IMG/VR virus record: IMGVR_UViG_3300047560_002412
Location: 32,001 to 96,000 of that record
DNA length: 64,000 bases
DNA from: a virus
Direction: 5' to 3' (one strand)
Shown here: piece after piece, positions 13,371 through 35,536 of the stretch
Layout of the letters: the number at the start of each line of letters is the position of its first letter
Numbering within the stretch: position 1 is the stretch's first letter
Made by a program: the position numbers and the translations under genes
The notes under the pieces: model-generated
Database searches by the model: none
What the model was told of the DNA's origin: nothing
Seen by the model: the letters and a program-made list of their open reading frames with translations, nothing else

Positions 13371-13454
13371 GCCCGAGTGGAGAAATGGTATACTCAGGAG
13401 ACTTAAAATCTCCCGTCGAAAGGCATGCCGGTTCGAGTCCGGCCTCGGGTACCA
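13371..13454 (+). tRNA. tRNA-Leu(UAA)
   Basis: Cloverleaf, GGAGA-CTTAAAA-TCTCC, CCA. Confidence 0.93.
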
Positions 13455-13459
13455 AATTT

Positions 13460-13534
13460 GGTTTCAAGGTGTTCATGGACGCACACTGGCTTGTCACGCC
13501 AGAGGACGGGGATCGTTACCCCGTGAGACCGCCA
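13460..13534 (+). tRNA. tRNA-Asp(GUC)
   Basis: CTGGC-TTGTCAC-GCCAG, CCA; variant T-loop. Confidence 0.9.
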
Positions 13535-13608
13535 AGTTGTGTTGCAACTAATCTTAGGGATTGAATGTTAGCCTAAGTTAAAATAACAAAAATCATTCAC
13601 AGAATTAT

Positions 13609-13683
13609 TCCAGGGTAGCACAGCGGTAGTGCAGTTGGCTGTTAACCAATTGGTCATAGGTTCGATCCCTATCCCTGGAGCCA
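13609..13683 (+). tRNA. tRNA-Asn(GUU)
   Basis: GTTGG-CTGTTAA-CCAAT, CCA. Confidence 0.93.
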
Positions 13684-13693
13684 ATTATAAATT

Positions 13694-14257
13694 ATGGATA
13701 CATTTAGAACACTTCGCATATACGGATTTAAGCAACCAGGTACAGAATACATCGTTAAAGTAAATGGTGTTGTAACTGAATTAGGGTCTGATGATCTTTT
13801 TTCTTTTATTACTAATACTAAATTACATGGTAGCAATAACATTGTAATAAATGTATTAGCTGGAAAACTTACAATTACACATTGTTATGCCACATATCCT
13901 GCATTGTTTAATAACATTGAAGGAACAGCAACAATGGTGCAACCAATTGCAGATCCAATTGCTGTAATAGAAAATGGACAGATTTTTTCAGTACCATTTC
14001 CTATTGTAGTATCAGAAGGTGAAACATTTGATTATGAACATTTAATGTTTAATGGTCCTTCAAGATTTAAAATTGCCGTACAAGGATTAGGAATTAATCC
14101 AGGTATAAACGTGTTTATTGGCAATGCTATGAAAAATGAATTTACTCAAGGAATCACTGATATTCAAGTTGAATACGACTATGAACGATTCCCCAATGAA
14201 ATAAATTCTGAAGAAGATTTAAACAATTTAAAATTAAAAGTTTTAATGGCTCGGTAG
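13694..14257 (+). CDS. hypothetical beta-rich protein within tRNA array
   Basis: 187-aa AT-rich ORF; stop TAG lies inside tRNA-Trp. Confidence 0.65.
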   Translation: MDTFRTLRIYGFKQPGTEYIVKVNGVVTELGSDDLFSFITNTKLHGSNNIVINVLAGKLTITHCYATYPALFNNIEGTATMVQPIADPIAVIENGQIFSVPFPIVVSEGETFDYEHLMFNGPSRFKIAVQGLGINPGINVFIGNAMKNEFTQGITDIQVEYDYERFPNEINSEEDLNNLKLKVLMAR

Positions 14258-14324
14258 TTCAGTCTGGCAGAACGTTGGTCTCCAAAACCAAATGTCGGTG
14301 GTTCAAATCCATCCCGGGTCGCCA
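14248..14324 (+). tRNA. tRNA-Trp(CCA)
   Basis: TTGGT-CTCCAAA-ACCAA; D-stem GTTC/GAAC; CCA. Confidence 0.93.
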
Positions 14325-14330
14325 ATCAAT

Positions 14331-14406
14331 GCTCGGTTCGTCTATCGGTCTAGGACACCGCCCTTTCACGGCGGGAAGAGGGGTTCGATTCCCCTACCGA
14401 GTACCA
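14331..14406 (+). tRNA. tRNA-Glu(UUC)
   Basis: CCGCC-CTTTCAC-GGCGG, CCA. Confidence 0.93.
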
Positions 14407-14415
14407 AAGTTCTAT

Positions 14416-14490
14416 GCACGAGTGGCGGAACGGTGACGCAACGGATTGCAAATCCGCACCATGCAGGTTCGAATCCTGTCTCGTGCTCCA
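14416..14490 (+). tRNA. tRNA-Cys(GCA)
   Basis: CGGA-TTGCAAA-TCCG, U73, CCA. Confidence 0.92.
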
Positions 14491-14492
14491 AT

Positions 14493-14572
14493 GCCCCTGT
14501 GGCCAAATAGGTAAAGGCGGCTCTCTCAAAAGGAGTGACTATCTCTCGGTTCGAGTCCGAGCAGGGGTACCA
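14493..14572 (+). tRNA. tRNA-Leu(CAA), short variable arm
   Basis: GCTCT-CTCAAAA-GGAGT, CCA. Confidence 0.88.
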
Positions 14573-14673
14573 TCAAACGTAGATGTTAATGAACATGCCT
14601 TTTGGATATCTTTGACGAGAGTTCCAGGCATGCTGAAGATATGAATATTTCATATTGTATTTAAAAAAATTAT

Positions 14674-14763
14674 GGAAGTGTGGCAGAGTCCGGTTTATTG
14701 CACCTGTCTTGAAAACAGACGATCAGAAATGGTCCGTGAGTTCGAATCTCACCGCTTCCGCCA
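14674..14763 (+). tRNA. tRNA-Ser(UGA)
   Basis: CTGT-CTTGAAA-ACAG, long variable arm, GCCA. Confidence 0.93.
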
Positions 14764-14769
14764 AGTTAT

Positions 14770-14845
14770 GCAGTAATGGAGGGGTAGGCGCCCTGTGCGC
14801 CGCATTCTAGATTCCCGCAAAGGTTCGAGTCCTTTGGCTGCACCA
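14770..14845 (+). ncRNA. tRNA-like RNA without canonical D or anticodon arms
   Basis: T-arm AAAGG-TTCGAGT-CCTTT, short acceptor GCAGT/GCTGC, ACCA end. Confidence 0.6.
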
Positions 14846-14849
14846 ATTT

Positions 14850-14925
14850 GCCTCTCTAGCTCAATCGGGAGAGCACCGTCTTGATAAGGCGGGGGTACCT
14901 GGATCGAAACCAGGGAGAGGCACCA
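14850..14925 (+). tRNA. tRNA-Ile(GAU)
   Basis: CCGTC-TTGATAA-GGCGG, CCA. Confidence 0.92.
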
Positions 14926-14940
14926 AACAAGGAGAACATT

Positions 14941-15003
14941 ATGGCAATACTTGTTGTGTTAGTTATAATGTTCGTTTTGTATCAAGTGTTAAAAAAATAT
15001 TAA
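14941..15003 (+). CDS. 20-aa hydrophobic peptide
   Basis: AAGGAG RBS; MAILVVLVIMFVLYQVLKKY. Confidence 0.55.
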   Translation: MAILVVLVIMFVLYQVLKKY

Positions 15004-15013
15004 GGAGAATGAC

Positions 15014-15034
15014 ATGAAACGTGGTAAACGTTAG
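15014..15034 (+). CDS. minigene MKRGKR followed by hairpin
   Basis: TAAGGAG RBS; TAG then hairpin 15035-15070. Confidence 0.45.
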   Translation: MKRGKR

Positions 15035-15096
15035 TGTCACCCTAGATCCCGTATTGGTCTAGGGTTGGCACATTAAATCAATTTAATTACGACTAA

Positions 15097-15172
15097 CCCT
15101 ATCTAGCGTTAATGGTAGCGCACTTGACTCTTAATCAATGAGGTGTCAGTTCGAATCTGACGGTAGGGACCA
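15097..15172 (+). tRNA. tRNA-Lys(CUU)
   Basis: TTGA-CTCTTAA-TCAA, CCA. Confidence 0.9.
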
Positions 15173-15176
15173 ATAT

Positions 15177-15253
15177 GGGAGTATAGCTCAACTGGCTAGA
15201 GCAACCGGCTTTTAACCGGTAGGTTCAGGGTTCAAGTCCCTGTGCTCCTACCA
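15177..15253 (+). tRNA. tRNA-Lys(UUU)
   Basis: ACCGG-CTTTTAA-CCGGT, CCA. Confidence 0.93.
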
Positions 15254-15344
15254 TTACTATAAGAGAGAACATTACAATGTTGGGTTCGATTCCCCGCCAC
15301 TGATCAGGTTGGATGGTGTCCTAATGTTCTCCCTTATGGTAATG
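15252..15344 (+). ncRNA. 23-bp stem-closed RNA with internal T-loop hairpin
   Basis: 15252-15274 pairs with 15322-15344 (one mismatch); GGG-TTCGATT-CCC inside. Confidence 0.55.
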
Positions 15345-15412
15345 TAGCATAACGGTAGTGCAGCACCTTCATACGGTGTCCAGTGAAAGTTCGACTCTTT
15401 CCATTACCACCA
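15338..15412 (+). tRNA. tRNA(CAU), elongator Met or Ile2
   Basis: GCACC-TTCATAC-GGTGT, CCA. Confidence 0.9.
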
Positions 15413-15414
15413 AG

Positions 15415-15567
15415 TTTCTGAGATAGACGTAGAGTTTGAGTCCTGCCTAACCTAGCGCAGTTTTGGTCGGCTGCGTGACACCACAGACGGTTATTGGTGG
15501 TCCTAAGACTTGCTCTATCGAGACAATCCAGTGAGTCCTCCCAGGAGGATAGTTGGGCTCTCAGAAA
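15415..15567 (+). ncRNA. unnamed structured RNA
   Basis: Closing stem TTTCTGAGA/TCTCAGAAA with internal hairpins (CGCAG/CTGCG, ACCAC/GTGGT, TCCTCC/GGAGGA). Confidence 0.5.
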
Positions 15568-15577
15568 ACCTATATTT

Positions 15578-15652
15578 GGGGGCAGCAGAGGGCTGCGGGG
15601 AATCCTTGCAAGATTCTTGACTAGAACGGTTCGATACCGTCGGCCTCCACCA
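15578..15652 (+). tRNA. tRNA-Ala(UGC) with minimal D-loop
   Basis: GAATC-CTTGCAA-GATTC, G3:U70, D-arm GCAG-AGGG-CTGC, CCA. Confidence 0.8.
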
Positions 15653-15658
15653 AATTTC

Positions 15659-15733
15659 GCCCTTGTATCCTTAGTGGTAGAGGTCCTGTTTTGTAAGCAG
15701 GGTGTGGTGGTTCGATTCCATCCTGGGGCACCA
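15659..15733 (+). tRNA. tRNA-Thr(UGU)
   Basis: CCTGT-TTTGTAA-GCAGG, CCA. Confidence 0.9.
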
Positions 15734-15736
15734 AGT

Positions 15737-15936
15737 TTTGTTGTAGTGTTAGTAAGTGAAAGTCACTTTTGTTAGTAGCTGGCCAGCCAAAGCAAAAGTA
15801 AACAGAGGGGGGCGCAATACCCTAGCAAAAAATACGTAACTCTGGGCAAGTAACTGCAATAGCGTACCGAGTCCTTCCAGCTGGCTTGATTAGAGGTGAA
15901 TGGTTCCTATAACGATGGTGGAACTACTACAACAAA
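15737..15936 (+). ncRNA. unnamed structured RNA, possible pseudoknot
   Basis: Closing stem TTTGTTGTAGT/ACTACAACAAA; loop AGCTGG complementary to distal CCAGCT. Confidence 0.55.
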
Positions 15937-15947
15937 TTTATTTCTGT

Positions 15948-16021
15948 TGGCGTGTGGTGTAATGGTAACACAACGGACTTTGACTCCGTCGTTCCAGGTT
16001 CGAGCCCTGGCATGCCTGCCA
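15948..16021 (+). tRNA. tRNA-Gln(UUG)
   Basis: ACGGA-CTTTGAC-TCCGT, CCA. Confidence 0.92.
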
Positions 16022-16027
16022 AGTTTT

Positions 16028-16126
16028 GCCTCTGTAGCTTAATGGTAAAGAAGCGAGCTTATACCTCGCCAAAGCACAGGCCAGATAAGCCTGAGTGTGC
16101 AGGTTCGAGTCCTGCCAGAGGCACCA
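16028..16126 (+). tRNA. tRNA with UAU anticodon and very long variable arm
   Basis: GCGAG-CTTATAC-CTCGC; ~29-nt extra arm; 99 nt; ACCA. Confidence 0.8.
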
Positions 16127-16133
16127 TTATTAT

Positions 16134-16210
16134 CGGTCCTTAACTCAGTTGGACAGAGTGCCTGTCTTCGAAACAGGAAGTCGTGGGTTCGAATCCTGCA
16201 GGGCCGGCCA
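16134..16210 (+). tRNA. tRNA-Arg(UCG)
   Basis: CCTGT-CTTCGAA-ACAGG, CCA. Confidence 0.92.
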
Positions 16211-16231
16211 AATTTTTTTATGGAGATTGTT

Positions 16232-16438
16232 ATGAAAGCAACTATGCTAAAAAATCGTTTTAATAATGAGCATTTTGTCTGTGACGATATCCGTGTGACT
16301 GAAACAATCGAAGGTGTCGAGTACATTATTGTACATCGACCCAATGAGCATCGCCCGTTTAAAATGCGTCGCGATGCATTAGAGAAAATTAATATCCCGG
16401 TAGCTCATTTGGAACAGAGTATCACGCTACGAACGTGA
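16232..16438 (+). CDS. small phage protein overlapping tRNA-Arg(ACG)
   Basis: GGAG RBS; MKATMLKNRFNNEHFVCDD... Confidence 0.65.
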   Translation: MKATMLKNRFNNEHFVCDDIRVTETIEGVEYIIVHRPNEHRPFKMRRDALEKINIPVAHLEQSITLRT

Positions 16439-16471
16439 GGGTAGTAGGTTCGAATCCTACCCGGGATGCCA
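16394..16471 (+). tRNA. tRNA-Arg(ACG)
   Basis: TCACG-CTACGAA-CGTGA, CCA. Confidence 0.92.
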
Positions 16472-16482
16472 AACAAAACATT

Positions 16483-16556
16483 CTGGGTGTAGGATAATGG
16501 TAGTCGACGAAGCTTGGATCTTCGAGGCGCTGGTTCGATTCCAGCCACCCAGACCA
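16483..16556 (+). tRNA. tRNA-Pro(UGG), variant loop
   Basis: CGAAG-CTTGGAT-CTTCG, CCA. Confidence 0.88.
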
Positions 16557-16562
16557 GATTAC

Positions 16563-16637
16563 ATAGCGTTCGACTTTTGGTGAGGTCAGTAGGCTTTCAA
16601 CCTACGTAGGCGGGTTCGATCCCCGTACGCTATACCA
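16563..16637 (+). tRNA. tRNA-Glu(UUC), second copy
   Basis: GTAGG-CTTTCAA-CCTAC, CCA. Confidence 0.88.
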
Positions 16638-16642
16638 ACTAT

Positions 16643-16718
16643 GGTGAGGATAGTGTACCGGTGCGCACACCTGTCTGTGAAACAGGTAGATAGGGTTCAA
16701 CTCCCGTCCATCACCCCA
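16643..16718 (+). tRNA. tRNA-His(GUG)
   Basis: G-1, CCTGT-CTGTGAA-ACAGG, C73, CCA. Confidence 0.9.
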
Positions 16719-16719
16719 A

Positions 16720-16794
16720 GGATCTTTAGCTCAGTGGTAGAGTAGCAGCTCGACACGCTGTTGGTCGTAGGTTCAAGTCCTGCAAGATCCACCA
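16720..16794 (+). tRNA. tRNA-Val(GAC)
   Basis: GCAGC-TCGACAC-GCTGT (C33), CCA. Confidence 0.88.
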
Positions 16795-16799
16795 AATAT

Positions 16800-16875
16800 G
16801 CCGCTTTAGCTGATGTGGTCATAGCACCGGTTTGAAGCACCGAGGAATGAGGTTCGATCCCTCAAGGCGGCACCA
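16800..16875 (+). tRNA. tRNA-Phe(GAA)
   Basis: CGGT-TTGAAGC-ACCG, CCA. Confidence 0.88.
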
Positions 16876-16879
16876 GTTT

Positions 16880-16979
16880 AAGCATCAACCGAAAGGTCGG
16901 CGATAAGAACAAGGTGTGAACATAGTTGCATCTTTGTTGGTCGGTAGATTGGAACGACTCACTCTTTTTACTGATGCTT
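16880..16979 (+). ncRNA. unnamed structured RNA
   Basis: Closing stem AAGCATCA/TGATGCTT; ACC-GAAA-GGT tetraloop hairpin. Confidence 0.45.
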
Positions 16980-17003
16980 TTTTAGTTTGTTAACCAAAAT
17001 ATG

Positions 17004-17033
17004 TTGACAAAGCATACAGATAGAATATATAAT
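17004..17033 (+). promoter_or_regulatory. sigma70 promoter for tRNA-Leu/giant ncRNA unit
   Basis: TTGACA-18-TATAAT. Confidence 0.75.
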
Positions 17034-17089
17034 AGTCACATATGCTTGTTAATAGCATTTAGTTCATTAAAAATTAAATTTAAGATTTT

Positions 17090-17173
17090 GCCCTGGTGGT
17101 GGAATGGTAGACACGCTGGTCTTAGAAGCCAGTGTCGCGAGGCGTGAGAGTTCGAGTCTCTCCTGGGGCACCA
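17090..17173 (+). tRNA. tRNA-Leu(UAG)
   Basis: CTGGT-CTTAGAA-GCCAG, variable arm, CCA. Confidence 0.93.
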
Positions 17174-17338
17174 TTAAAAAATAGCATTAGCGGGTATCGC
17201 TTGTGGACGCACAGGCTCATGAGGAATAGGGCCATCTTACTCCTCTGAAAAAACCGTGAACAATGGCTTATGAGGAGAATCGAACTCCACTCAGAAATAC
17301 GTTTCATCCCATAGGGTGTAATGTTATTTTTTAATGGT
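17170..17338 (+). ncRNA. unnamed RNA closed by a 20-bp stem
   Basis: 17170-17189 pairs with 17319-17338. Confidence 0.55.
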
Positions 17339-17347
17339 AAAAATTTA

Positions 17348-18232
17348 AGGGCAGTTTATTGTCCTGTAGGCGGCTTGCCGTCTACAAAGAATAAGTGAGG
17401 TGACTCACCCAAAGCTAGAATGCCTACATACTAGCGCCAGCAATGGTTCATGTAAACAAGCCTGCTCACTACCGCGAGGTAGCGTTCACTGATAAGACCG
17501 GTGGATGTAACAGCAAAGCTGATGTAGTGGAAAGAACGTTTGCTTACAAGCCCGTAAGGGGAACTTGAGTGAATGGAAAGTAACAGGTGGTGCTGACTTC
17601 ACTACAAAACCAATCAGTCAACTGGTATGAGAAAGGGTAGTGTATTGGTCCGAAGGGTCGCTCCTAAGGGCTCGTATGCAATGTTAATGGAAGGTGGAAC
17701 ACGTTGCGAAACGTTGTTACATCGGTCGTGAAACATCACTGAGTAGCTCGCGAGGCAAAAGGTATGTGGTGAGTTGTATTTTGTATTCCAAAAGAGTATG
17801 AAGCAACTGAGGCAGCTCATCGCGGTAGGTTCAATGTAGATCAATGGTAGATCGTCTGTCTTTTAAACAGAATGCTGTGGGTTCAAATCCCATCATTAAC
17901 AAAAATGCAAAGACTGCCTCGGTTATGTGTGAAAAGTATCTAACGCTCGGGGCGCAAGCCAACTGAGTCTGATAAAGCTCGCAAGGTGATATCAGTTTAT
18001 ACTGGAAGTTTCGTAGTTCGCAAGACTTAATGGCTCGCAAGGTCAACGGAATAGATGGTGTAGAGTAGCATATAACGACAAGCCTAATGCCTGGCTTTAA
18101 AAACGGCGATACTGCAAGTAGACTAGGTTACATGGTAACATGAACTTAGTGGATGTCTAGAGAACGTATACTCGCAAGGTGTACGGTAATGCTAGAGGTA
18201 CTTGTGGGAGAGATGTAATCTCAGTCCTCCAC
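17348..18232 (+). ncRNA. giant structured ncRNA, GOLLD-like
   Basis: ~885 nt without credible sense ORF, many GNRA-capped hairpins (GCGA, GTAA, GCAA), inside a phage tRNA array; ends approximate. Confidence 0.75.
17829..17901 (+). tRNA. tRNA-Lys(UUU)-like cloverleaf embedded in the giant ncRNA, no CCA
   Basis: D-arm GATC/GATC, TCTGT-CTTTTAA-ACAGA, T-arm GTGGG-TTCAAAT-CCCAT. Confidence 0.75.
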
Positions 18233-18320
18233 TATTCTAAAACACATTAACTTAAAACATAGTTTCGAGTATGGGAAATGCCGCCCAATGAGATGATGGT
18301 ATAGTGTGTTTCAGAATAGT
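18231..18320 (+). ncRNA. stem-closed small RNA
   Basis: ACTATTCT/AGAATAGT and AAACACATTA/TAGTGTGTTT stems. Confidence 0.45.
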
Positions 18321-18324
18321 TTTT

Positions 18325-18400
18325 GCATCCTTAGCTCAGCGGTAGCAGCGGCGTCTTTACACGGCGTAGGTCGTAGGTTCAATCCCTACAGGATGCACCA
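18325..18400 (+). tRNA. tRNA-Val(UAC)
   Basis: GCGTC-TTTACAC-GGCGT, CCA. Confidence 0.92.
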
Positions 18401-18405
18401 ATTAT

Positions 18406-18500
18406 GGAGTGTTGGCCGAGTTGGTCGAAGGCACCTTCCTGCTAAGAAGGCATTCGGGCAAAAACCTGGATCATTGGTTCGAATCCAATACACTCCGCCA
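18406..18500 (+). tRNA. tRNA-Ser(GCU)
   Basis: CCTTC-CTGCTAA-GAAGG, long arm, GCCA. Confidence 0.93.
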
Positions 18501-18523
18501 AATTTATTAAAAAGGAAAAAATA

Positions 18524-18712
18524 ATGCTAAAACCAGGTCCGAGTTACAAAATGAGTAAGCAGGGTAAAAGAACATTAGCGCAATATCTTGATTCACATAA
18601 GCGTGGCGAAGTTAAGCGTAGTATTATCCAAGCAGAACTTGCTGCATTGATTCAACCAAAACGTGAAAGAAATCGCAGAGAAGGACAAAACGACAATGGT
18701 AGCAAGGAATGA
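18524..18712 (+). CDS. small basic phage protein
   Basis: AAGGA RBS; MLKPGPSYKMSKQGKRTLA. Confidence 0.7.
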   Translation: MLKPGPSYKMSKQGKRTLAQYLDSHKRGEVKRSIIQAELAALIQPKRERNRREGQNDNGSKE

Positions 18713-18980
18713 TATTACAGGTGATGCTATCCAAACTAGGACATCATCTAAAGCATATAACGATAATTACGACGCAATTTTTAGGAAAAATAAAGTGACT
18801 CCAAAAGTAGAAGATATGAAGAAAGGAACTTGTGGTTGCGGACGTTCGCCCACAGGTGATTGCATTGGATGGCATGGATTGTCAGAAGATGCATATAAAA
18901 AAGCACTTGAAGATTATCGTATTGCTGAAGTATCAAAGTTAGTTGCTGAAGAAACACTTCAAGCAACAGACAATAAGTAA
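18696..18980 (+). CDS. small protein with CDGSH-like Fe-S/Zn motif
   Basis: ARNDITGD N-terminal module; CGCGRSPTGDCIGWH. Confidence 0.7.
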   Translation: MVARNDITGDAIQTRTSSKAYNDNYDAIFRKNKVTPKVEDMKKGTCGCGRSPTGDCIGWHGLSEDAYKKALEDYRIAEVSKLVAEETLQATDNK

Positions 18981-18985
18981 TATTT

Positions 18986-19061
18986 GGGGGTTTAGCTCAT
19001 CTGGGAGAGCATTAGCTTTGCAAGCTAAGGGTGATCGGTTCGAGTCCGATAACCTCCACCA
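18986..19061 (+). tRNA. tRNA-Ala(UGC)
   Basis: TTAGC-TTTGCAA-GCTAA, G3:U70, CCA. Confidence 0.93.
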
Positions 19062-19079
19062 AGAGATATATAGTAGTAC

Positions 19080-19155
<76 letters not shown>

Positions 19156-19160
19156 ATTAT

Positions 19161-19236
19161 GGCCAGGTGGCAGAGCGACTTATGCGCTAGATTGCAAATC
19201 TGGATTAGGTAGGTGGAAATCCTACCCTGGCCTCCA
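19161..19236 (+). tRNA. tRNA-Cys(GCA), second copy with variant T-loop
   Basis: CTAGA-TTGCAAA-TCTGG, TCCA. Confidence 0.85.
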
Positions 19237-19245
19237 GTTTTACCA

Positions 19246-19281
19246 AAAAGACTTGACCTTAGGTCTTTTTTGTTTTATACT
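19246..19281 (+). terminator. terminator hairpin overlapping a sigma70 promoter
   Basis: AAAAGAC..GTCTTTTTT; TTGACC(19253)-17-TATACT. Confidence 0.65.
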
Positions 19282-19287
19282 AGTTTT

Positions 19288-19551
19288 GTTGTGTAGCAAT
19301 ACACAACCGGCGAGGTAGAAGGTAGATGAGGATAGACATTTCATTGGCTTACAACGCTAATGAATCTTATCAATGGCAAAACGTCTTGAAAACGTTTCGT
19401 GCTTGAGTGAACCGATATCCACATACCTGTCATTTGCTGATCGGAAATATTCAGGCCTCTGTAGCCTGTTTATTGAATGTTGTCAAGGAGATGCTTTATA
19501 GCTATCCGTTTGCATATTGTCCGGTCTATTACTTGACCTTTTACTGACCCG
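19288..19551 (+). ncRNA. structured RNA or long 5' leader upstream of coiled-coil gene
   Basis: GCAA hairpin, long-range GTAGAAGGT/ACCTTTTAC and ATAGAC/GTCTAT stems enclosing several hairpins. Confidence 0.55.
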
Positions 19552-19578
19552 TTATTTTAAATTAAAAGAGAGACACAA

Positions 19579-20151
19579 ATGAACATTACACTACGCAAAG
19601 CAAACACAATTCAGAACAGCATCAATGATGCAATCAAGGGTATTAAGATTGAGACATCTATTAATATCAACGAATTTCAGGATGTTGAAGTAGAAATCAA
19701 AAAAGCCAATGAAGGATTGTTTTTTGCTGACACTCGTCGTCAAAAGTTAACTTTGGCTCTCTACAACATTCGAGGTCTTGTTGCACAGGCAAACGCAAGT
19801 GCCGGCATTGACCTGGCGCTAACAAAAGCTGCCTTCATTGACAAAAGAATTGCACAGCTAGAAACATTAGCTCAACTTGAAGAACATACTTCCGTTGAAG
19901 TTTTAAAAGGCAAACTTCGTAAAATTGCCGAAGACAAGGGCGAAAGCCGTAGCCGTATTTACGGTTACAATGATTATGTTACTACTACCGTAGTATCTAA
20001 AGAACAGGTTAATCAGGCTAAGAGTGAAATTCAAACTCTTAAAAAACAAAAACAGAAACTCAATGATGAGGTTCTTGAATTAAACATCAAAACAGAAATT
20101 CCTTTAACTGACGATGTTGTTGAAACATTAAAGGCAGAAGGTATTATCTAA
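19579..20151 (+). CDS. helical coiled-coil protein, reminiscent of DIP1984-like family
   Basis: ITLRKA..IQ N-terminus and KQKLNDEVLELNIKTEI C-terminus. Confidence 0.7.
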   Translation: MNITLRKANTIQNSINDAIKGIKIETSININEFQDVEVEIKKANEGLFFADTRRQKLTLALYNIRGLVAQANASAGIDLALTKAAFIDKRIAQLETLAQLEEHTSVEVLKGKLRKIAEDKGESRSRIYGYNDYVTTTVVSKEQVNQAKSEIQTLKKQKQKLNDEVLELNIKTEIPLTDDVVETLKAEGII

Positions 20152-20158
20152 GACCTAT

Positions 20159-20233
20159 CGCGGGTTGGAGAAGTGGTATCTCGGGAGTCTCATAAGCTCC
20201 AGATCCCTGGTTCAATTCCAGGACCCGCAACCA
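20159..20233 (+). tRNA. tRNA-fMet(CAU)-type
   Basis: C1:A72 mismatch, CTCATAA loop, CCA. Confidence 0.88.
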
Positions 20234-20238
20234 ATTTT

Positions 20239-20315
20239 CGGTGTGTAGCTCAGCCTGGTAGAGCTCCTGGTTTGGGACCAGGTGGTCGCATGTTCGAATC
20301 GTGTCACACCGACCA
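20239..20315 (+). tRNA. tRNA-Pro(UGG)
   Basis: CCTGG-TTTGGGA-CCAGG, CCA. Confidence 0.93.
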
Positions 20316-20347
20316 AGTACGATAAGATACGTTCAATAAATAGAAAT

Positions 20348-21505
20348 ATGAATATTGGCGGACTTGATCAATTTAAAGATAATTCTATTAACGGTATTAT
20401 CGACGAAATAAAAAAGATAAATGGTTTATTATTAGATGCAACAATAAGCCTTTGTCAACATTGTCATTACCATGTTCCAGCATATAGATACGAATTAAAC
20501 AATAAAGTCTATATTTGCAAACATTGTATAACACATGGTTTTAGTCATCATCTAATTGAAAATGATGCTGAATTTTATCACGGGTTGATAAAGAACATGG
20601 ATACCATGTGGAATTTTGATAACTATATTCTTACTGAAGTTACAGATAGATGTAATTTAGAATGTCCGCATTGTTATCATTTACCTGATAATAAAATTAA
20701 AGATGTTCCGTTAGAAGATCTTATAACTCGATTTAAAGAATATCCAGACAGCATTTATCATATAATCTTGGCTGGTGCCGAATCGAGTTTAAGGAAAGAC
20801 ATAAAAGATTTAGTTATCGAAGTTAGTAAATTAGGAAAACTTCCTCAAATTTTAACTAATGGTGTTAAATTTTCCGATATTGATTTTGTAAAAAATCTTG
20901 CTTCAGCAAATGTTGATATGACGGTTACCATAGGTTTAAATCATCCTAGCTATATTGGAAATTCTAAGGTACGTGAAAAACAAATTCAAGGAATCCTAAA
21001 TGTAAACGAATACATCAATGGATTATCGTATGTTGGTTACACTATGGTTGGAATGGATGAATTAGATTTTATTCTAACTGAAATTACTAGCACTAATTGG
21101 TGTCAACATTCAAGGATTAGAGCAGGTAGTGAAATAGGTAGAAATGCCACAGACGAACAAATTTTTGTCAGTGACATTTTTAAAGCAACAAAATTGTGGG
21201 CAGAAAGAAACGGAAAATCTTTTGAAGTTGTAGATGCTGATAATAACATATATCATGTTGTTGTAAAAATAGACAACAAGTATATAAGAATTATTCAATG
21301 GTGTGACGAAACAAATATTGATTTAGAAGAATTAAGAACTGGTCCTTGGTGTGATTTTGTCTACGACGGAATAACAAATTTTTTACATCAAGTTATAAGA
21401 AGAGATGTTTGGAAAAATAAAGGTTTAATTTTACCGGATACTCCTCCAATAAGATACCAGGTTGGGCATCATAAAGATATAGATCCAGTTTTTCTCAAGC
21501 ACTAA
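20348..21505 (+). CDS. radical SAM enzyme with N-terminal Cys/His motif
   Basis: CNLECPHC; SLCQHC...KHC..HG; LTNG. Confidence 0.88.
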   Translation: MNIGGLDQFKDNSINGIIDEIKKINGLLLDATISLCQHCHYHVPAYRYELNNKVYICKHCITHGFSHHLIENDAEFYHGLIKNMDTMWNFDNYILTEVTDRCNLECPHCYHLPDNKIKDVPLEDLITRFKEYPDSIYHIILAGAESSLRKDIKDLVIEVSKLGKLPQILTNGVKFSDIDFVKNLASANVDMTVTIGLNHPSYIGNSKVREKQIQGILNVNEYINGLSYVGYTMVGMDELDFILTEITSTNWCQHSRIRAGSEIGRNATDEQIFVSDIFKATKLWAERNGKSFEVVDADNNIYHVVVKIDNKYIRIIQWCDETNIDLEELRTGPWCDFVYDGITNFLHQVIRRDVWKNKGLILPDTPPIRYQVGHHKDIDPVFLKH

Positions 21506-21532
21506 AGAAGTTGCTGTAAATATAGTTTTAAT

Positions 21533-21606
21533 GCGGGGTTCGTATAGTGGTAATACCTCAGCCTTCCAAGCTGATGCGGAGAGTTCGATTCTCTTACCCC
21601 GCTCCA
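21533..21606 (+). tRNA. tRNA-Gly(UCC)
   Basis: TCAGC-CTTCCAA-GCTGA, TCCA. Confidence 0.93.
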
Positions 21607-21610
21607 TAAT

Positions 21611-22183
21611 ATGCAAATAGTAGACCAAAACGATCTAGTTAAAAAATTTAATTTTAGTTCTATAATAAATCAGAAGGATAATGATACCGCCATAGGCATT
21701 ATTACTGATATTATCGCTTCTGGTAATTACTTTACTAATTCACCAAAGTATCAAACTAAAGAAAACATATTTTCACGTCCAGAAGAAGTATGGTTAAAAT
21801 ACCGTATGAGCTTCTTAATGAGCGTGTTTATGTATTTAGGTCGAGAAGTTAGAGTCGGTAACATGATGGCATGGAGTTTTATGACAAATCTTGAGGGTGC
21901 CGAAGATCGCGAAAAACTTTGGCACCATCATTGGCATCCAACTAAACCCGATGCCAAAATGTTAAGCGGAATATTTTATCTACATATTCCCGATGATGTC
22001 AAGGACCGAGATACATGCGGTACTGAAATGGCTCCGAGTGGAATTCATAGTGATGAAAAATATTTTATCACTCCAACAGAGTTTAGTTGGATAGTATATC
22101 CTAGTCAAGTATATCATAGGCCAGGAATCGTACAAAGTAATCAATATAGATATATTCTAGCAGTAGACGTAGAATATTATTAA
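21611..22183 (+). CDS. 2OG-Fe(II) oxygenase-like protein
   Basis: WHHH, SGIFYL, GTE, YPS..YH, R..LA. Confidence 0.75.
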   Translation: MQIVDQNDLVKKFNFSSIINQKDNDTAIGIITDIIASGNYFTNSPKYQTKENIFSRPEEVWLKYRMSFLMSVFMYLGREVRVGNMMAWSFMTNLEGAEDREKLWHHHWHPTKPDAKMLSGIFYLHIPDDVKDRDTCGTEMAPSGIHSDEKYFITPTEFSWIVYPSQVYHRPGIVQSNQYRYILAVDVEYY

Positions 22184-22184
22184 T

Positions 22185-22260
<76 letters not shown>

Positions 22261-22264
22261 AATT

Positions 22265-22339
22265 CTGGCTATAGTATAATGGAGAATACAACTCTCTTCT
22301 AAAGAGTGAATGTGGGTTCGATTCCTGCTAGCCGGGCCA
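22265..22339 (+). tRNA. tRNA-Arg(UCU)
   Basis: ACTCT-CTTCTAA-AGAGT, GCCA. Confidence 0.9.
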
Positions 22340-22343
22340 AATC

Positions 22344-22417
22344 GCTCCTATAGTTAAATGGCAGAACACATCCTTGGTAAGGATGCGATACAAGTTCGAT
22401 TCTTGTTAGGAGCACCA
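22344..22417 (+). tRNA. tRNA-Thr(GGU)
   Basis: CATCC-TTGGTAA-GGATG, CCA. Confidence 0.92.
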
Positions 22418-26593: not shown

Positions 26594-28108
26594 ATGCCTT
26601 TACAGATTAGAAGAGGGAATACCGCACAACGCCAGAATATTGTTCCCCAGGCTGGAGAGCTAGTTTACGATACCGATTTAGGTACAATTTATGTCGGAGA
26701 CGGTGAAACAGCTGGTGGTATTGCATCAGTTAATATCACACCTCGCGACGTAAGAGACCAAGCCGCAGGAATTTTTACAAGTGGGTCACATACAGGAATC
26801 TCGTTTACATATAACGGATCAGAAGGAACAATTGATGCAGTCGTAGACCCAGACTTATCTAATTATCAAGGTGTAATTAGAGCATCAGCATTCAATGGAA
26901 GTTTAGTTGCTGACGATAGCTCTTTACTAGTTGATGCACTACACGGATATATCAATTTAAATGGAACCGTTAAAAGTAACGTTGTTCCAGATTCCGATTC
27001 AGCATATGATATCGGTACATCAGGTTTAAGATTTAAAGACCTATATCTTTCAGGGTCTAGTTTACATTTAGGTAGTGCTACAATTACATCTGTTGGAAGT
27101 GCCGTTAATCTTCCAGCTGGATCAACCGTCGGCGGAGTTTCTATAGGATCGGGCGGAACAGGTGACGGTGTTGTATCTGGAATGAATTACAATATTAATA
27201 TTGTAGGTGATGATAGCACTTTAATTGTTAATGCAACAACAAAATCTGTATCAGCAGCAGGTGGTTTTACAGGAAATTTAACTGGTAATGTAACTGGAGA
27301 TCATACTGGATATGTTTACGGTGACGTTGAAGGAAATTTAACCGGTAATGTAACAGGTAATGTTCTTGGTGATACAACAGGCGACCATAAAGGAAACATT
27401 TTAGCTAATGATCTTACATCGGCTTATGATGCAGATACAAAAGCCTTTACAGGAAGTTTAACTGGTAATGTAACAGGTAATATCAACGGTGATGTAAGAA
27501 CAGCTACTATTAATGTAGCTGGAGCATATCTGACAATTGAAAATTCTACTAATACCTCTATTTCAACAATAAGAAGAAATATTCCAGAACCAGGAAATCA
27601 TACAGATGTTAACGCTATTACTGATGGTGTATATTCAACGGGTACGTCTTATTATATTTCTAGAGGAACACTAGGAACTCCAGCAGCAGTACACACCGCT
27701 GACAGACTTGTAGCAGACATTTATTTTGCACACGACGGCACAACGTATGTTCCGTCTTGTATTATGGGTATGGGTGTTGATCCATTTGCTTCTGTCACAA
27801 CAGGTGCTGTACCGGGTGGTATTAGCTTTACAGCTATTAGTGACGGAAACATTACACATTTAACCAAGACATTCTTAATGGATTCTAGAGGTTATATTGG
27901 AATCAATAACGGATTTAATCAACCGGGGGCAACATTAGATATTAATGGATTTGCTAAACTTGCTGTGCTGACCGCTGCACCAGCATCGCCTGCAGAAGGC
28001 ATGATTGCTATTGCAGACGGAACTACATGGGATCCTATGTCAACAGGTAAGAAAGTTGTGGTTGCATATCTAGGTGGTGGTTGGAGACAAATGGCTACTG
28101 CGCCTTAA
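26594..28108 (+). CDS. virion structural/tail-fibre-like protein (Mtd N-terminal-type motif)
   Basis: LQIRRGN.......P..GELVYDTD...YVGDG; TGN(L/V)TG repeats; TAAATA late motif upstream. Confidence 0.8.
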   Translation: MPLQIRRGNTAQRQNIVPQAGELVYDTDLGTIYVGDGETAGGIASVNITPRDVRDQAAGIFTSGSHTGISFTYNGSEGTIDAVVDPDLSNYQGVIRASAFNGSLVADDSSLLVDALHGYINLNGTVKSNVVPDSDSAYDIGTSGLRFKDLYLSGSSLHLGSATITSVGSAVNLPAGSTVGGVSIGSGGTGDGVVSGMNYNINIVGDDSTLIVNATTKSVSAAGGFTGNLTGNVTGDHTGYVYGDVEGNLTGNVTGNVLGDTTGDHKGNILANDLTSAYDADTKAFTGSLTGNVTGNINGDVRTATINVAGAYLTIENSTNTSISTIRRNIPEPGNHTDVNAITDGVYSTGTSYYISRGTLGTPAAVHTADRLVADIYFAHDGTTYVPSCIMGMGVDPFASVTTGAVPGGISFTAISDGNITHLTKTFLMDSRGYIGINNGFNQPGATLDINGFAKLAVLTAAPASPAEGMIAIADGTTWDPMSTGKKVVVAYLGGGWRQMATAP

Positions 28109-33003: not shown

Positions 33004-33512
33004 TTGTATCCTAAAAAATGATATAGATAATGGTCTTCAAACCCGCAGTTACTTGATCCATGCCAAGACATAACTTCCGGCCATTCTACTACGGTACCTT
33101 GAGGTACCATATAAAAAGATTCTTTATCAATTAATAAAATTTGTCCATGTGCAGGAGTACCAATATGACAGGTAAATCTTTTTAGGGTTCCTAATTTTAA
33201 ATATTCTTCCATGCTATCATCGATGTCCTGATGCCACGGTGCATTTTTTCCCGGGCGAACTTTACTAATCCATGATCGAACTTCTGTAAGTCCTACTTGT
33301 TTAGAAAACTCATCACTTATATTTTGATCAAAATGTTTACCGGGATAATAATTAATCCATTCAACTTTTTGTGGAGTATATCCAGCTTCGGTCCACATGG
33401 TAATTATTTCATTAAATCTACCATCTGTATTTTGATAAAAAGTTCCACCCATTGATCGAACTTCGCCGTCCTGTGTTTTTATACCGTCTAGCACTTGATT
33501 CCAATTTATCAT
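33000..33512 (-). CDS. 2OG-Fe(II) oxygenase-like protein (paralogue)
   Basis: PG..APWHQD, WHGSSNCG. Confidence 0.78.
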   Translation of the reverse strand: MINWNQVLDGIKTQDGEVRSMGGTFYQNTDGRFNEIITMWTEAGYTPQKVEWINYYPGKHFDQNISDEFSKQVGLTEVRSWISKVRPGKNAPWHQDIDDSMEEYLKLGTLKRFTCHIGTPAHGQILLIDKESFYMVPQGTVVEWPEVMSWHGSSNCGFEDHYLYHFLGYK

Positions 33513-35536
33513 TAGTGTTCCTTTTTATTACCTTGAATTATTTTCTTTGTTTCAAACGTTCTATTTTTAATATATGTACCATCAGCTACCCGTATAGTAT
33601 CCATATTTCGAATCATATTAATATATTGATCGGTCCATTTAATTTTTGTATTTGGAATTGTTTTTAAAAGAATACTTCCTTCGATAGGTGGATCTTCTTT
33701 AGATTTTCTTTCCTCATATAAATCCCAACGATATTTTGTTTCCCACTCGACTTCCTCTGCTGGGTCTTCTCTAAAAGTACTATTCTCAACATAAGTTAAT
33801 AAATCGTCTAAGGGTTCATCTATATGTTCTGCTAATTGTTCTCTCAGACTTTTAAATATTTCTTTTCTGGATGAAACCCAACAATATATCAAACCTTCAT
33901 TAATAGAAAAATCACCTCTCACAGGACCAACATTAAACTCTCGCCAAGGTAAATTTTCTCGAGTACCATTAATAATGCTCTCCATATAACCATTTACTGG
34001 AGTTTTAAATTTTTCACAATTCCACATTGCTGTGTGAATTATTTTATATGAATATCGAGGTAGTATACCTTTCTGATAATTTAAATAATCAACTAACGGT
34101 TTAACAAGAAGATTATTAATTAATGGAATTTTCATATCGTTCATTAAGAACATTTCTTTCCACTCTTCTTCTGTGTACGAATAACACGAAACCGGTATGT
34201 ACATAGCATATTGTTTTTTAGGAAATTGTTTTTTAAAATTTACTATGTACTTTGAATCACTATATTGCTTAAGAAGATCCATAGTTTCCATATTAATACC
34301 CGCAAGTTTCATTTGAAATTTTTCAAGATATGCAGGGTCTGCTATAGGAGCATCTGGAAGAACATATAATGGTACATGGTGTGACACGGTTTTAATTTTA
34401 TTAAACACCGCATCTTCAATTTCCATTTCTTCATAAAATACAGGAATGGTGCTTCCTGGTAAACCAATAATTAATTCAATTAATGTTTCAGCATCGTACT
34501 TTTCAATAAAATATTTTGCCAACTCAACATTTTCTTCTGCAGGAATATCAAAACGTTCTACATTTTTTAATACTTGAGGATCTATACTCTGTAAACTTAC
34601 TTGATAAAATTGTAATACTCCGGATTCAAATAATGGTTCTAATACCGCTTTTTTCTTTTCGACACTAGATTTAGCCAAGCCCATGATCCCAACAAATTTA
34701 ACATGTTCTTTCATTGCTGCTATCATGTGTGCTATCTCAACATCTTGTTTTAATATTCCATAATTTGCATCTGTTATGAATACTGATCCTACGCCTAAAT
34801 CTTTAAAATATGAAAAGTCATTTCTAATATTTTCTAAATCTTTGACAATAACTTTTGTTGATGTTCCTCCACCCCATTCACAATACGAACAACTATAAGG
34901 ACATCCTCTATTTGTTTCATACAATGTAACTAAAACTCTATCATGTGATTTAGCATATTCTGACCATGCGTAACAAATGTCTAAATTCTTTTCAATCAAT
35001 CCCCACGGATAGCTAAAATCTTTTTTATTTCCTAACGGACCTTTTCCTTTTCTATGGTAACTATTCCTAACGTTATTCCAATTTAAATCACCTTCAATTA
35101 CACTATCTAACATATCAGTAATAAAAAATTCACCATATTCTACTGCTTGACAGGTTGCATCAAAATACGGATGATCCTTAAACCAAAAAATTGGATCTGT
35201 ATAAGTAGTTCCTTGATTTGGGCCGCCTAGAACAATCAACGCATTTGGATGTGCTTCTCTAACGGCAAGAGCAATTATTTTAATAATATCCCAACTCCAC
35301 ATATAACTGCTAAACATGTATACGTCTGCGTTGGCATTAATGGCTTCTTCAACTACATCATCTAACGTTTGACCAGTGTAATCCATCACGGGAGGAATCC
35401 ATTCCCACTTATCAGAATGTTTTCCGTGGTCTTCGTAATATCTTTTAAATTCTAACCAAACAAGAGGTAAGAAAAGATAGATGTGCTGCTGAACATCCCA
35501 TCTAAAGAACCATATTTTTTTCTTAGACTCTGTCAT
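33512..35536 (-). CDS. B12-binding-domain radical SAM enzyme
   Basis: SSYMWS, IVLGGP, YGE, ETNRGCPYSCSYCEW, DANYG, ELIIGLPG. Confidence 0.9.
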   Translation of the reverse strand: MTESKKKIWFFRWDVQQHIYLFLPLVWLEFKRYYEDHGKHSDKWEWIPPVMDYTGQTLDDVVEEAINANADVYMFSSYMWSWDIIKIIALAVREAHPNALIVLGGPNQGTTYTDPIFWFKDHPYFDATCQAVEYGEFFITDMLDSVIEGDLNWNNVRNSYHRKGKGPLGNKKDFSYPWGLIEKNLDICYAWSEYAKSHDRVLVTLYETNRGCPYSCSYCEWGGGTSTKVIVKDLENIRNDFSYFKDLGVGSVFITDANYGILKQDVEIAHMIAAMKEHVKFVGIMGLAKSSVEKKKAVLEPLFESGVLQFYQVSLQSIDPQVLKNVERFDIPAEENVELAKYFIEKYDAETLIELIIGLPGSTIPVFYEEMEIEDAVFNKIKTVSHHVPLYVLPDAPIADPAYLEKFQMKLAGINMETMDLLKQYSDSKYIVNFKKQFPKKQYAMYIPVSCYSYTEEEWKEMFLMNDMKIPLINNLLVKPLVDYLNYQKGILPRYSYKIIHTAMWNCEKFKTPVNGYMESIINGTRENLPWREFNVGPVRGDFSINEGLIYCWVSSRKEIFKSLREQLAEHIDEPLDDLLTYVENSTFREDPAEEVEWETKYRWDLYEERKSKEDPPIEGSILLKTIPNTKIKWTDQYINMIRNMDTIRVADGTYIKNRTFETKKIIQGNKKEH

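Follow-up and report, generated by a model that had tools for sequence, protein, structure and literature searches.

A GOLLD RNA with a tRNA-Lys(UUU)-shaped module in its linker, encoded in the tRNA array of a large freshwater phage

The DNA analysed here is a stretch of 64,000 nucleotides (hereafter the window), covering bases 32001–96000 of the 128.7-kb IMG/VR virus record IMGVR_UViG_3300047560_002412, whose completeness according to CheckV is 35%. At 17345–18232 on its plus strand, the start being approximate, it carries an element in which a large non-coding RNA encloses a cloverleaf with the shape of a tRNA-Lys(UUU), and this raises the question of whether the tRNA is a precursor to be cut out for decoding or a part that stays inside the RNA. 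The element was confirmed as one gene for a full-length GOLLD RNA within the 34-tRNA array of a large freshwater phage, and it probably works as a single stable RNA, whose tRNA look-alike stays tethered within a cage and is not a precursor cut out for decoding. GOLLD RNA with a built-in tRNA is already published, and a tRNA in the GOLLD linker was reportedly described by Weinberg in 2009; the element is a further member of this family, while its sequence itself is new.

Identity and fold of the GOLLD RNA

The Rfam covariance models, run over the whole window at their gathering scores, produced 35 matches, one to GOLLD and 34 to tRNA, with no match to ROOL or other large-RNA families at that score. 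The GOLLD (RF02032) match occupied 17766–18227 on the plus strand and covered model positions 1–416 of 416 with 221.5 bits against a gathering score of 150 (E 2.2e-61); it was the only one in the entire 128.7-kb record, and its score was repeated in the whole-record run. An earlier note, made from the letters of the DNA, had called a GOLLD-like RNA at 17348–18232 and proposed a check with the Rfam GOLLD and ROOL models, of which GOLLD matched and ROOL stayed below the gathering score. Several other attributes of the family were also present. The element measures 885 bases with its 72-base insert and about 800 without it, in agreement with the approximately 800 bases typical of GOLLD; its 3′ domain is conserved, its 5′ domain less so, and the linker between them is variable; and it resides in a phage tRNA island, a frequent setting for these phage- or prophage-encoded RNAs, with 34 tRNA genes at 13371–22417 on one strand. 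Its longest open reading frames were 41 amino acids in sense and 76 and 71 amino acids in antisense orientation, in line with the earlier view that no credible sense frame exists. The G+C content of the element (0.453) exceeded that of the window (0.375), of the two adjacent spacers (0.39 and 0.33) and of the neighbouring 500 bases with tRNA genes (0.41–0.42), so that the enrichment over the flanks which the note had claimed is true, albeit modest. The hairpin motifs quoted in the note were all found in place, namely CCGCGAGG at 17472, CCCGTAAGGG at 17551, CTCGCGAGG at 17747 and CTCGCAAGG at 17978, 18034 and 18171.

A blastn search in its 'distant' setting with 17300–18260 against 50,697 phage records found no match, nor did a tblastn search of the same records with a 674-amino-acid open reading frame (33512–35536), and the phage was not placed. 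Relatives were found among viral contigs: five aligned with the window over about 860–940 bases at 73–78% identity (blastn) and three more in part, and all eight scored above the Rfam GOLLD cut-off (187–225 bits). The homology extended from approximately 17342 to 18232; the start, at about 17342–17349, and the end both agree with the bounds of the earlier note.

The nine sequences, the window and its eight relatives, were aligned with MAFFT, and a consensus structure was calculated with RNAalifold from that same alignment. It comprised 235 pairs, for which 95.7% of the alignment cells were paired, compared to 35–41% when the partners were slid by 1–3 columns. Pairs changed on both sides numbered 145, compared to 31–38 in the slid controls, and none of 500 shuffles reached as high. 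The 5′ domain (17345–17765, plus strand), which could be aligned in all eight relatives, is formed by many hairpins, several of them with GNRA-type loops, and its helices 2–20 included both-side changes; helices 27–39 of the 3′ domain (17902–18232, plus strand; Rfam model positions from about 110 to 416) covaried as well, and the domain ended with a terminal hairpin (18208–18214 with 18224–18230) around an invariant GUAAUCUCA loop. Since both halves covary, the 5′ part, which lies outside the Rfam model, belongs to the same RNA.

The conserved 3′ region begins on the plus strand with a hairpin at 17766–17826 (Rfam model 1–62) that has a CAAAAG loop and for which we use our own provisional label 'P14'. 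In its inner stem, 17773–17788 pairs with 17794–17807, and 7 of the 14 pairs were changed on both sides (helix 21). The linker is closed by a long-range helix of the plus strand between 17808–17816 and 17912–17921 (helix 22), which forms a knot with the outer stem of the hairpin before it. All cells of its 9 pairs were paired (100%), and 5 pairs were changed on both sides. This covarying 9-pair helix clamps the base of the linker between the two GOLLD domains.

Evidence for an RNA product came from public sequencing runs, of which 24 contained part of 17000–18500; six of these were recorded as RNA. Four metatranscriptomes, each from a different study, supplied contigs that were placed on the window at 90% likeness. 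The summed word depth was 0–76 in the left-flank bins (17014–17355), was between hundreds and 52,590 within 17356–18153 and fell on the 3′ side to 0–129 at 18154–18210, 0–27 at 18211–18267 and 0–15 beyond, with zero cover in the bins 17014–17070 and 18268–18324; the contigs leave holes. The flanking tRNA genes were thus barely covered, which argues against a carry-over of DNA. Two RNA-library contigs began at 17354, and the sequence that precedes this position in both is presumably an adapter tail. A covariance-model match, covariation among homologues and RNA-library contigs over the element, that is, the kind of evidence whose lack the earlier note had named as a reason to give up the GOLLD assignment, were therefore all present.

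As regards the higher-order structure, a bioRxiv preprint (Kretsch et al., 2024) describes a cage of 14 GOLLD copies with the variable linker inside, in which phage tRNAs sometimes sit. A review from 2026 lists as solved the GOLLDs env-38 (14-mer) and that of Streptococcus agalactiae, a 12-mer when complete and mostly a 10-mer when reduced to its 3′ domain. The element has in common with these solved members of RF02032 the domain architecture, the phage tRNA island and the approximately 800 bases without insert, and it differs from them in being a new sequence from a freshwater phage fragment. By analogy with them, the RNA would self-assemble as a hollow cage of 12 to 14 copies with its linkers pointing inward, and around twelve tRNA-shaped modules would be suspended in its interior. 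ROOL occupies the same genomic setting near tRNA islands and likewise forms a cage from RNA alone, in which the variable linker is unresolved, while its sequence and fold are distinct from those of GOLLD.

The tRNA-Lys(UUU)-shaped module

The module occupies 17829–17901 on the plus strand, inside the GOLLD match and in the stretch modelled by Rfam as an unpaired variable linker. It consists of a D arm (17839–17853), an anticodon arm (17855–17871, loop CUUUUAA) and a T arm (17877–17893), all three of which covaried among the relatives (helices 24–26). Rfam recognized it as a tRNA with 62.4 bits at 17830–17901 and ARAGORN called a tRNA-Lys(ttt) over the same interval, in accordance with the embedded cloverleaf of the earlier note. 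The cloverleaf, the 7-base loop and the UUU anticodon of a tRNA-Lys are thus present, while the acceptor end departs from that of a decoding tRNA. Only 5 of the 7 acceptor positions paired in the ARAGORN register; read from 17829, the sequence gives 7 pairs and one bulged C, which corresponds to the bulged acceptor stem of the note. A simple register count over the 34 ARAGORN tRNAs of the window found all 7 acceptor positions paired in 29, the module being among the other five, and an encoded CCA in 33, with the module, whose lack of CCA the note had remarked, as the sole exception. Each of the seven full-length relatives carrying the module had 1–3 acceptor mismatches. An ordinary tRNA-Lys(UUU) with CCA is encoded elsewhere in the same phage, at 15177–15253.

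Two RNA libraries contained exact contigs crossing the tRNA, one of 605 bases (17620–18224) and one of 123 bases (17803–17925). Both junctions of the tRNA are spanned by them, though contigs cannot show ends or partial cleavage. Three observations speak against the processing by RNase P and RNase Z that the earlier note had suggested: the CCA is missing, the acceptor is imperfect and the exact RNA contigs continue across both junctions.

The same contigs and the linker-closing helix bear on the idea that the tRNA shape is a processing handle, at which RNase P (and RNase Z) would split the GOLLD while the halves stay held together by that helix and by cage contacts. tRNA-shaped elements are in general known as RNase P signals, the covarying helix 22 bridges the linker, and in the solved structure each of the two domains folds by itself. 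However, the exact RNA contigs cross both junctions, the acceptor tops are degenerate across the clade and most GOLLDs have no such handle, and we consider cleavage of this kind very improbable.

A related possibility is storage: the cage would protect a genuine tRNA-Lys against RNase P and RNase Z and then open, whereupon the tRNA would be released, given its CCA and used. The 2026 review proposes such an 'inhibited storage' for a Mycolicibacterium GOLLD with an inward-pointing tRNA-Phe in J13/15, and the good tRNA model score and canonical anticodon loop of our module would suit it. On the other side, a normal tRNA-Lys(UUU) is already provided by the array, CCA is absent here and encoded in the other 33 tRNAs, pairing in the acceptor is limited to 5 of 7 positions, and the exact RNA contigs span both junctions. 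In the report of Behra et al. (2019) on M. aubagnense, whose GOLLD contains a pseudo-tRNA, a separate product was undetected on the Northern blot. The mycobacterial and Mycolicibacterium GOLLDs (PMC6582537; PMC12990946) resemble the present one in having a tRNA-shaped insert at the same place of the linker and in belonging to a large, horizontally moving tRNA cluster; they differ in that theirs is a tRNA-Phe or pseudo-tRNA on a bacterial chromosome and ours a Lys(UUU) on a phage contig and, moreover, in the clade of the window the anticodon varies between close relatives. Altogether, storage of a functional precursor appears improbable.

The favoured reading, a stable RNA with a tethered tRNA look-alike, has to be weighed against several observations that point the other way. 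The 62.4 bits of the module lie well within the range of the other tRNAs of the phage (33.6–71.9), and its 7-base loop with U33 and A37 is canonical. Host enzymes are able to add CCA, and RNase P is tolerant of imperfect acceptors, so that the module may still be released as a tRNA. Many of the RNA-library contigs were 90–95% alike to the window and thus derive from relatives, and contigs are blind to ends, strand, level and partial cleavage. Three contig joints in runs X21 and X24 leave out 67–70 bases, almost exactly the interval of the tRNA (from 17831 to 17899 or 17902, and from 17833 to 17901); their source may be a relative with another module or with none, an excised form, or something else. 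Cage formation is deduced from cryo-electron microscopy of other GOLLDs, the present one being known from its sequence. Finally, a close relative (L007) has a 48-base linker free of the module, and most of the linkers mapped in the family (see below) are also without one, which makes the module dispensable for the core function of the family. As to the enzymes concerned, the CCA-adding enzyme domain PF01743 was not found in the 128.7-kb record, which is itself 35% complete; searches of the same incomplete record for RNA repair (PF09414 and PF09511) gave no match either, and the PF09511 control also failed in all 14 control genomes, so that these negatives count neither way.

Linker modules and anticodons across the family

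A first scan of viral contigs, using a pattern made from the window's own conserved 3′-domain motifs, gave at least 119 loci; in the resulting set of 120 sequences, window included, 10 were unconfirmed by nhmmer. Among the matches listed, ARAGORN found a tRNA in 9 of the 120 linkers, which is not to be taken as a family-wide frequency. Linkers were then mapped by nhmmer anchors in 84 of the 120 sequences, replacing a P14 pattern that had missed 34 of them. Again among the matches listed, linker length ranged from 45 to 123 bases, and the 84 mapped linkers comprised about 60 AU-rich spacers of 45–73 bases, 13 long AU-rich ones and 10 with a tRNA shape. The latter included eight members of the window's clade, the locus L004 and an acceptor-less Lys(CUU) in L099. 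In this last case (L099:4068–4127), the D, anticodon (CUU) and T arms are present without acceptor strands, and the Rfam tRNA model was matched at positions 7–64 only.

A T-arm motif, spaced from the 3′-domain motifs by the distance of the linker, was a condition of the second scan, which therefore informs on the kinds of module and not on their frequency. It gave 91 loci; with the window added, iterative nhmmer searches using the 3′ domain confirmed 51 of 92 as GOLLD, and the 41 others, 15 of them with an ARAGORN tRNA at the motif, were dropped from the tallies. The Rfam GOLLD cut-off was passed by 15 of the 16 loci tested, the sole failure being L004. This nhmmer-positive locus, whose Lys(UUU) module has a perfect 7-pair acceptor and would on that account have favoured storage of a real tRNA, is not counted as an independent GOLLD lineage because of its score. 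At the 51 confirmed loci, the embedded modules differed from the free tRNAs at the acceptor end: CCA was encoded in 2 of 41 embedded modules compared to 547 of 657 free tRNAs, and 7 of 7 acceptor pairs were counted in 2 of 41 compared to 473 of 657, by a crude register in which about 100 of the 657 free tRNAs scored 1–4 pairs, probably through mis-set ends. Low acceptor counts are also expected for tRNA-His and initiator tRNA for known reasons.

Anticodons could be assigned to 47 modules of the 50 rows of a tree (L191, L181 and L029 remained unlabelled), seven of them by our own reading of the arm where ARAGORN made no call. GUU was the most common with 11 modules, followed by UUU with seven and by UCU and an 8-base-loop form ('tg') with five each, while 14 other kinds occurred once or twice; the rarer anticodons included UGG, UCC, UGA, UUG, CAU and UUA. 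Two modules, L110 (UUU) and L022 (GUU), differed only at base 34, and those of L116 (UGG) and L182 (UGA) were otherwise identical. 'Ser' anticodons occurred on short-arm bodies, and some loops had 8 bases. The anticodon is therefore decoupled from the body of the module, and both the different anticodons on identical bodies and the short-arm 'Ser' forms speak further against storage of a functional tRNA. In two near-identical GOLLDs, L159 and L187, the linker anticodon reads UUA and would pair with the UAA stop codon.

The tree was built from the GOLLD backbone without the module and without L182, whose 3′ part is shorter than 250 bases; 16 of its 44 forks were unsupported. Over its 47 labelled tips the anticodon needed 23 changes, compared to 29–36 with shuffled labels and a floor of 17, and presence or absence changed six times for UUU and six times for GUU. 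In two pairs the modules were more alike than the backbones that carry them (95% versus 72% and 95% versus 82%), which hints at a stronger constraint on the module or at an exchange between GOLLDs. ANN codons are read by 31 of the 47 modules and by 220 of the 657 free tRNAs encoded alongside them, a comparison that serves as a lead and not as a test, since the rows are related.

These data also bear on the possibility that the module is a passenger or a strut, that is, a captured tRNA gene which fills or spaces a permissive linker with no specific partner and whose anticodon drifts freely. The predominance of AU-rich spacers without tRNA shape among the mapped linkers, the loss of the module in L007, the minimum of 23 anticodon changes over 47 tips and the fact that only one or two base changes separate most anticodons from UUU would all agree with it. 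Nevertheless, the D, anticodon and T arms all covary, most modules retain the 7-base loop with U33 and A37–A38, the likeness of modules exceeds that of backbones in the two pairs above, and GUU and UCU are commoner than the A/U-only neighbours that AT-rich drift should favour. On balance, a mere passenger seems a doubtful explanation.

The combination of a cloverleaf that is kept, an acceptor end and CCA that are not, and an anticodon that is labile and yet biased to Asn, Lys and Arg(UCU) argues for a tethered tRNA mimic. The module would then be retained for its L-shaped body and anticodon arm and not for being excised to decode lysine codons, and its most likely partner would be a protein that recognizes tRNA, anticodon nucleases and modification enzymes being examples. 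In the literature searched, to which supplementary files did not belong, no paper was found that tallies linker anticodons or acceptor defects.

A more specific function within the tethered mimic, which it does not exclude, would be that of a caged decoy or bait: the Lys/Asn-type arms would attract, or be cut in place of, the tRNAs targeted by host anticodon nucleases such as PrrC and the AriB of PARIS, and would so protect translation during infection. The prevalence of GUU, UUU and UCU (11, 7 and 5 of the 47 labelled modules), the excess of ANN-reading anticodons over the free tRNAs and the six changes each by which UUU and GUU recur on the backbone tree are in favour of it. According to PMC12409363, AriB cuts tRNA-Lys(UUU), Thr(UGU) and Asn(GUU), in vitro without base modifications, and PMC10264068 names tRNA-Lys(UUU) as cut by PrrC. 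Phage T5 neutralises PARIS by means of variants of its tRNA-Lys, tRNA-Thr and tRNA-Asn (PMC12409363, PMC11464382), which are phage-encoded too and have the identities that prevail in the linkers (Lys UUU, Asn GUU and some Thr). In contrast to the GOLLD module, which is tethered, without CCA and weak in its acceptor, the T5 tRNAs are free, functional and cleavage-resistant replacements. Other points count against a decoy. The rows are related, so that their counts are not independent, and more than a third of the tree forks (16 of 44) are unsupported; many other anticodons occur (UGG, UCC, UGA, UUG, CAU and UUA); the linker faces the cage interior, which limits access for proteins; and the idea stems from the earlier note, of which it is not independent. 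Furthermore, position 39 is an A in the module of the window and a U in the AriB motif, and in the AriB-resistant T5 variant of PMC12409363 U39 is replaced by A. We regard the decoy as a tentative idea, more apt to be wrong than right.

Surroundings of the gene and possible role

Upstream of the GOLLD gene, 17004–17033 on the plus strand contains a sigma-70 consensus promoter-like site (TTGACA, an 18-base spacer and TATAAT; 12 of 12 hexamer matches), followed by tRNA-Leu(tag) at 17090–17173. The region had five promoter-like sites against 3.4 expected from shuffles, and the one at 17004–17033 counts as a consensus match only; it might serve tRNA-Leu, GOLLD and the tRNAs that follow as an operon promoter. 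The alignment can further be read as containing an extended –10-like element (17335–17344, plus strand) immediately ahead of the point where GOLLD conservation starts, with TAnnnT-like boxes there in the relatives; the promoter scan did not call it. The 174-base spacer between tRNA-Leu(tag) and GOLLD (17174–17347) had a strong predicted fold, with a minimum free energy (MFE) of –50.3 kcal/mol, and a T-arm-like motif recognizable by eye on its minus strand; neither a tRNA nor an RNA family was called in it by any tool, and low-depth contigs over it were found in one riverine RNA run.

Directly 3′ of the GOLLD and before tRNA-Val, a long companion hairpin lies at 18233–18322 on the plus strand (MFE –26.6 kcal/mol), outside the Rfam model. 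Seven aligned sequences kept its 17-pair basal helix, 4 pairs of which had compensatory changes; the apical part varied. The cover by RNA-library contigs drops to nearly zero at this hairpin. It may be a processing element of the RNase III type or a termination element travelling with this GOLLD clade.

Within the array, Rfam matched a 96-base tRNA at 16028–16123 (59.7 bits) that ARAGORN did not call; on reading, its anticodon loop is of the Ile(UAU) type, some 30 bases form an additional arm ahead of the T arm, and CCA is encoded. Conversely, the ARAGORN tRNA-Asp(gtc) at 13460–13534 remained below the Rfam tRNA gathering score. Pfam matches around the array, listed together for 20282–21505, 293–2371 and 26594–28108, were a radical SAM protein, a CHASE2-adenylate/guanylate cyclase and an Mtd_N protein. 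The radical SAM protein, which has an HMPTM-type zinc ribbon, sits inside the tRNA array, and the Mtd_N (major tropism determinant) domain hints at a target of a diversity-generating retroelement. ClpP was also among the nearby matches, and the Pfam set as a whole fits a large phage. In three viral contigs of the survey a tmRNA was located near GOLLD (L130:12697–13051, of the permuted type, L124:2211–2651 and L131:2657–3013).

GOLLD RNAs are among the largest non-coding RNAs of bacteria and phages and, according to structures published since 2024, form a cage made of RNA only. The locus adds to them a well-supported GOLLD from a freshwater jumbo-type phage with evidence from environmental RNA, and its clade allows linker modules to be compared across dozens of relatives, which could bear on the role of GOLLD. 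A speculative extension, to which we give little credence at present, is that the GOLLD cage may be a counter-defence device of the phage, in which a dozen tethered, uncharged arms of Lys/Asn/Arg type would soak up or mislead anticodon nucleases similar to PrrC and PARIS. If this were true, the rapid switching of linker anticodons between UUU, GUU and UCU on near-identical bodies would be the signature of an arms race, and counter-defence would be the first function for GOLLD RNAs.

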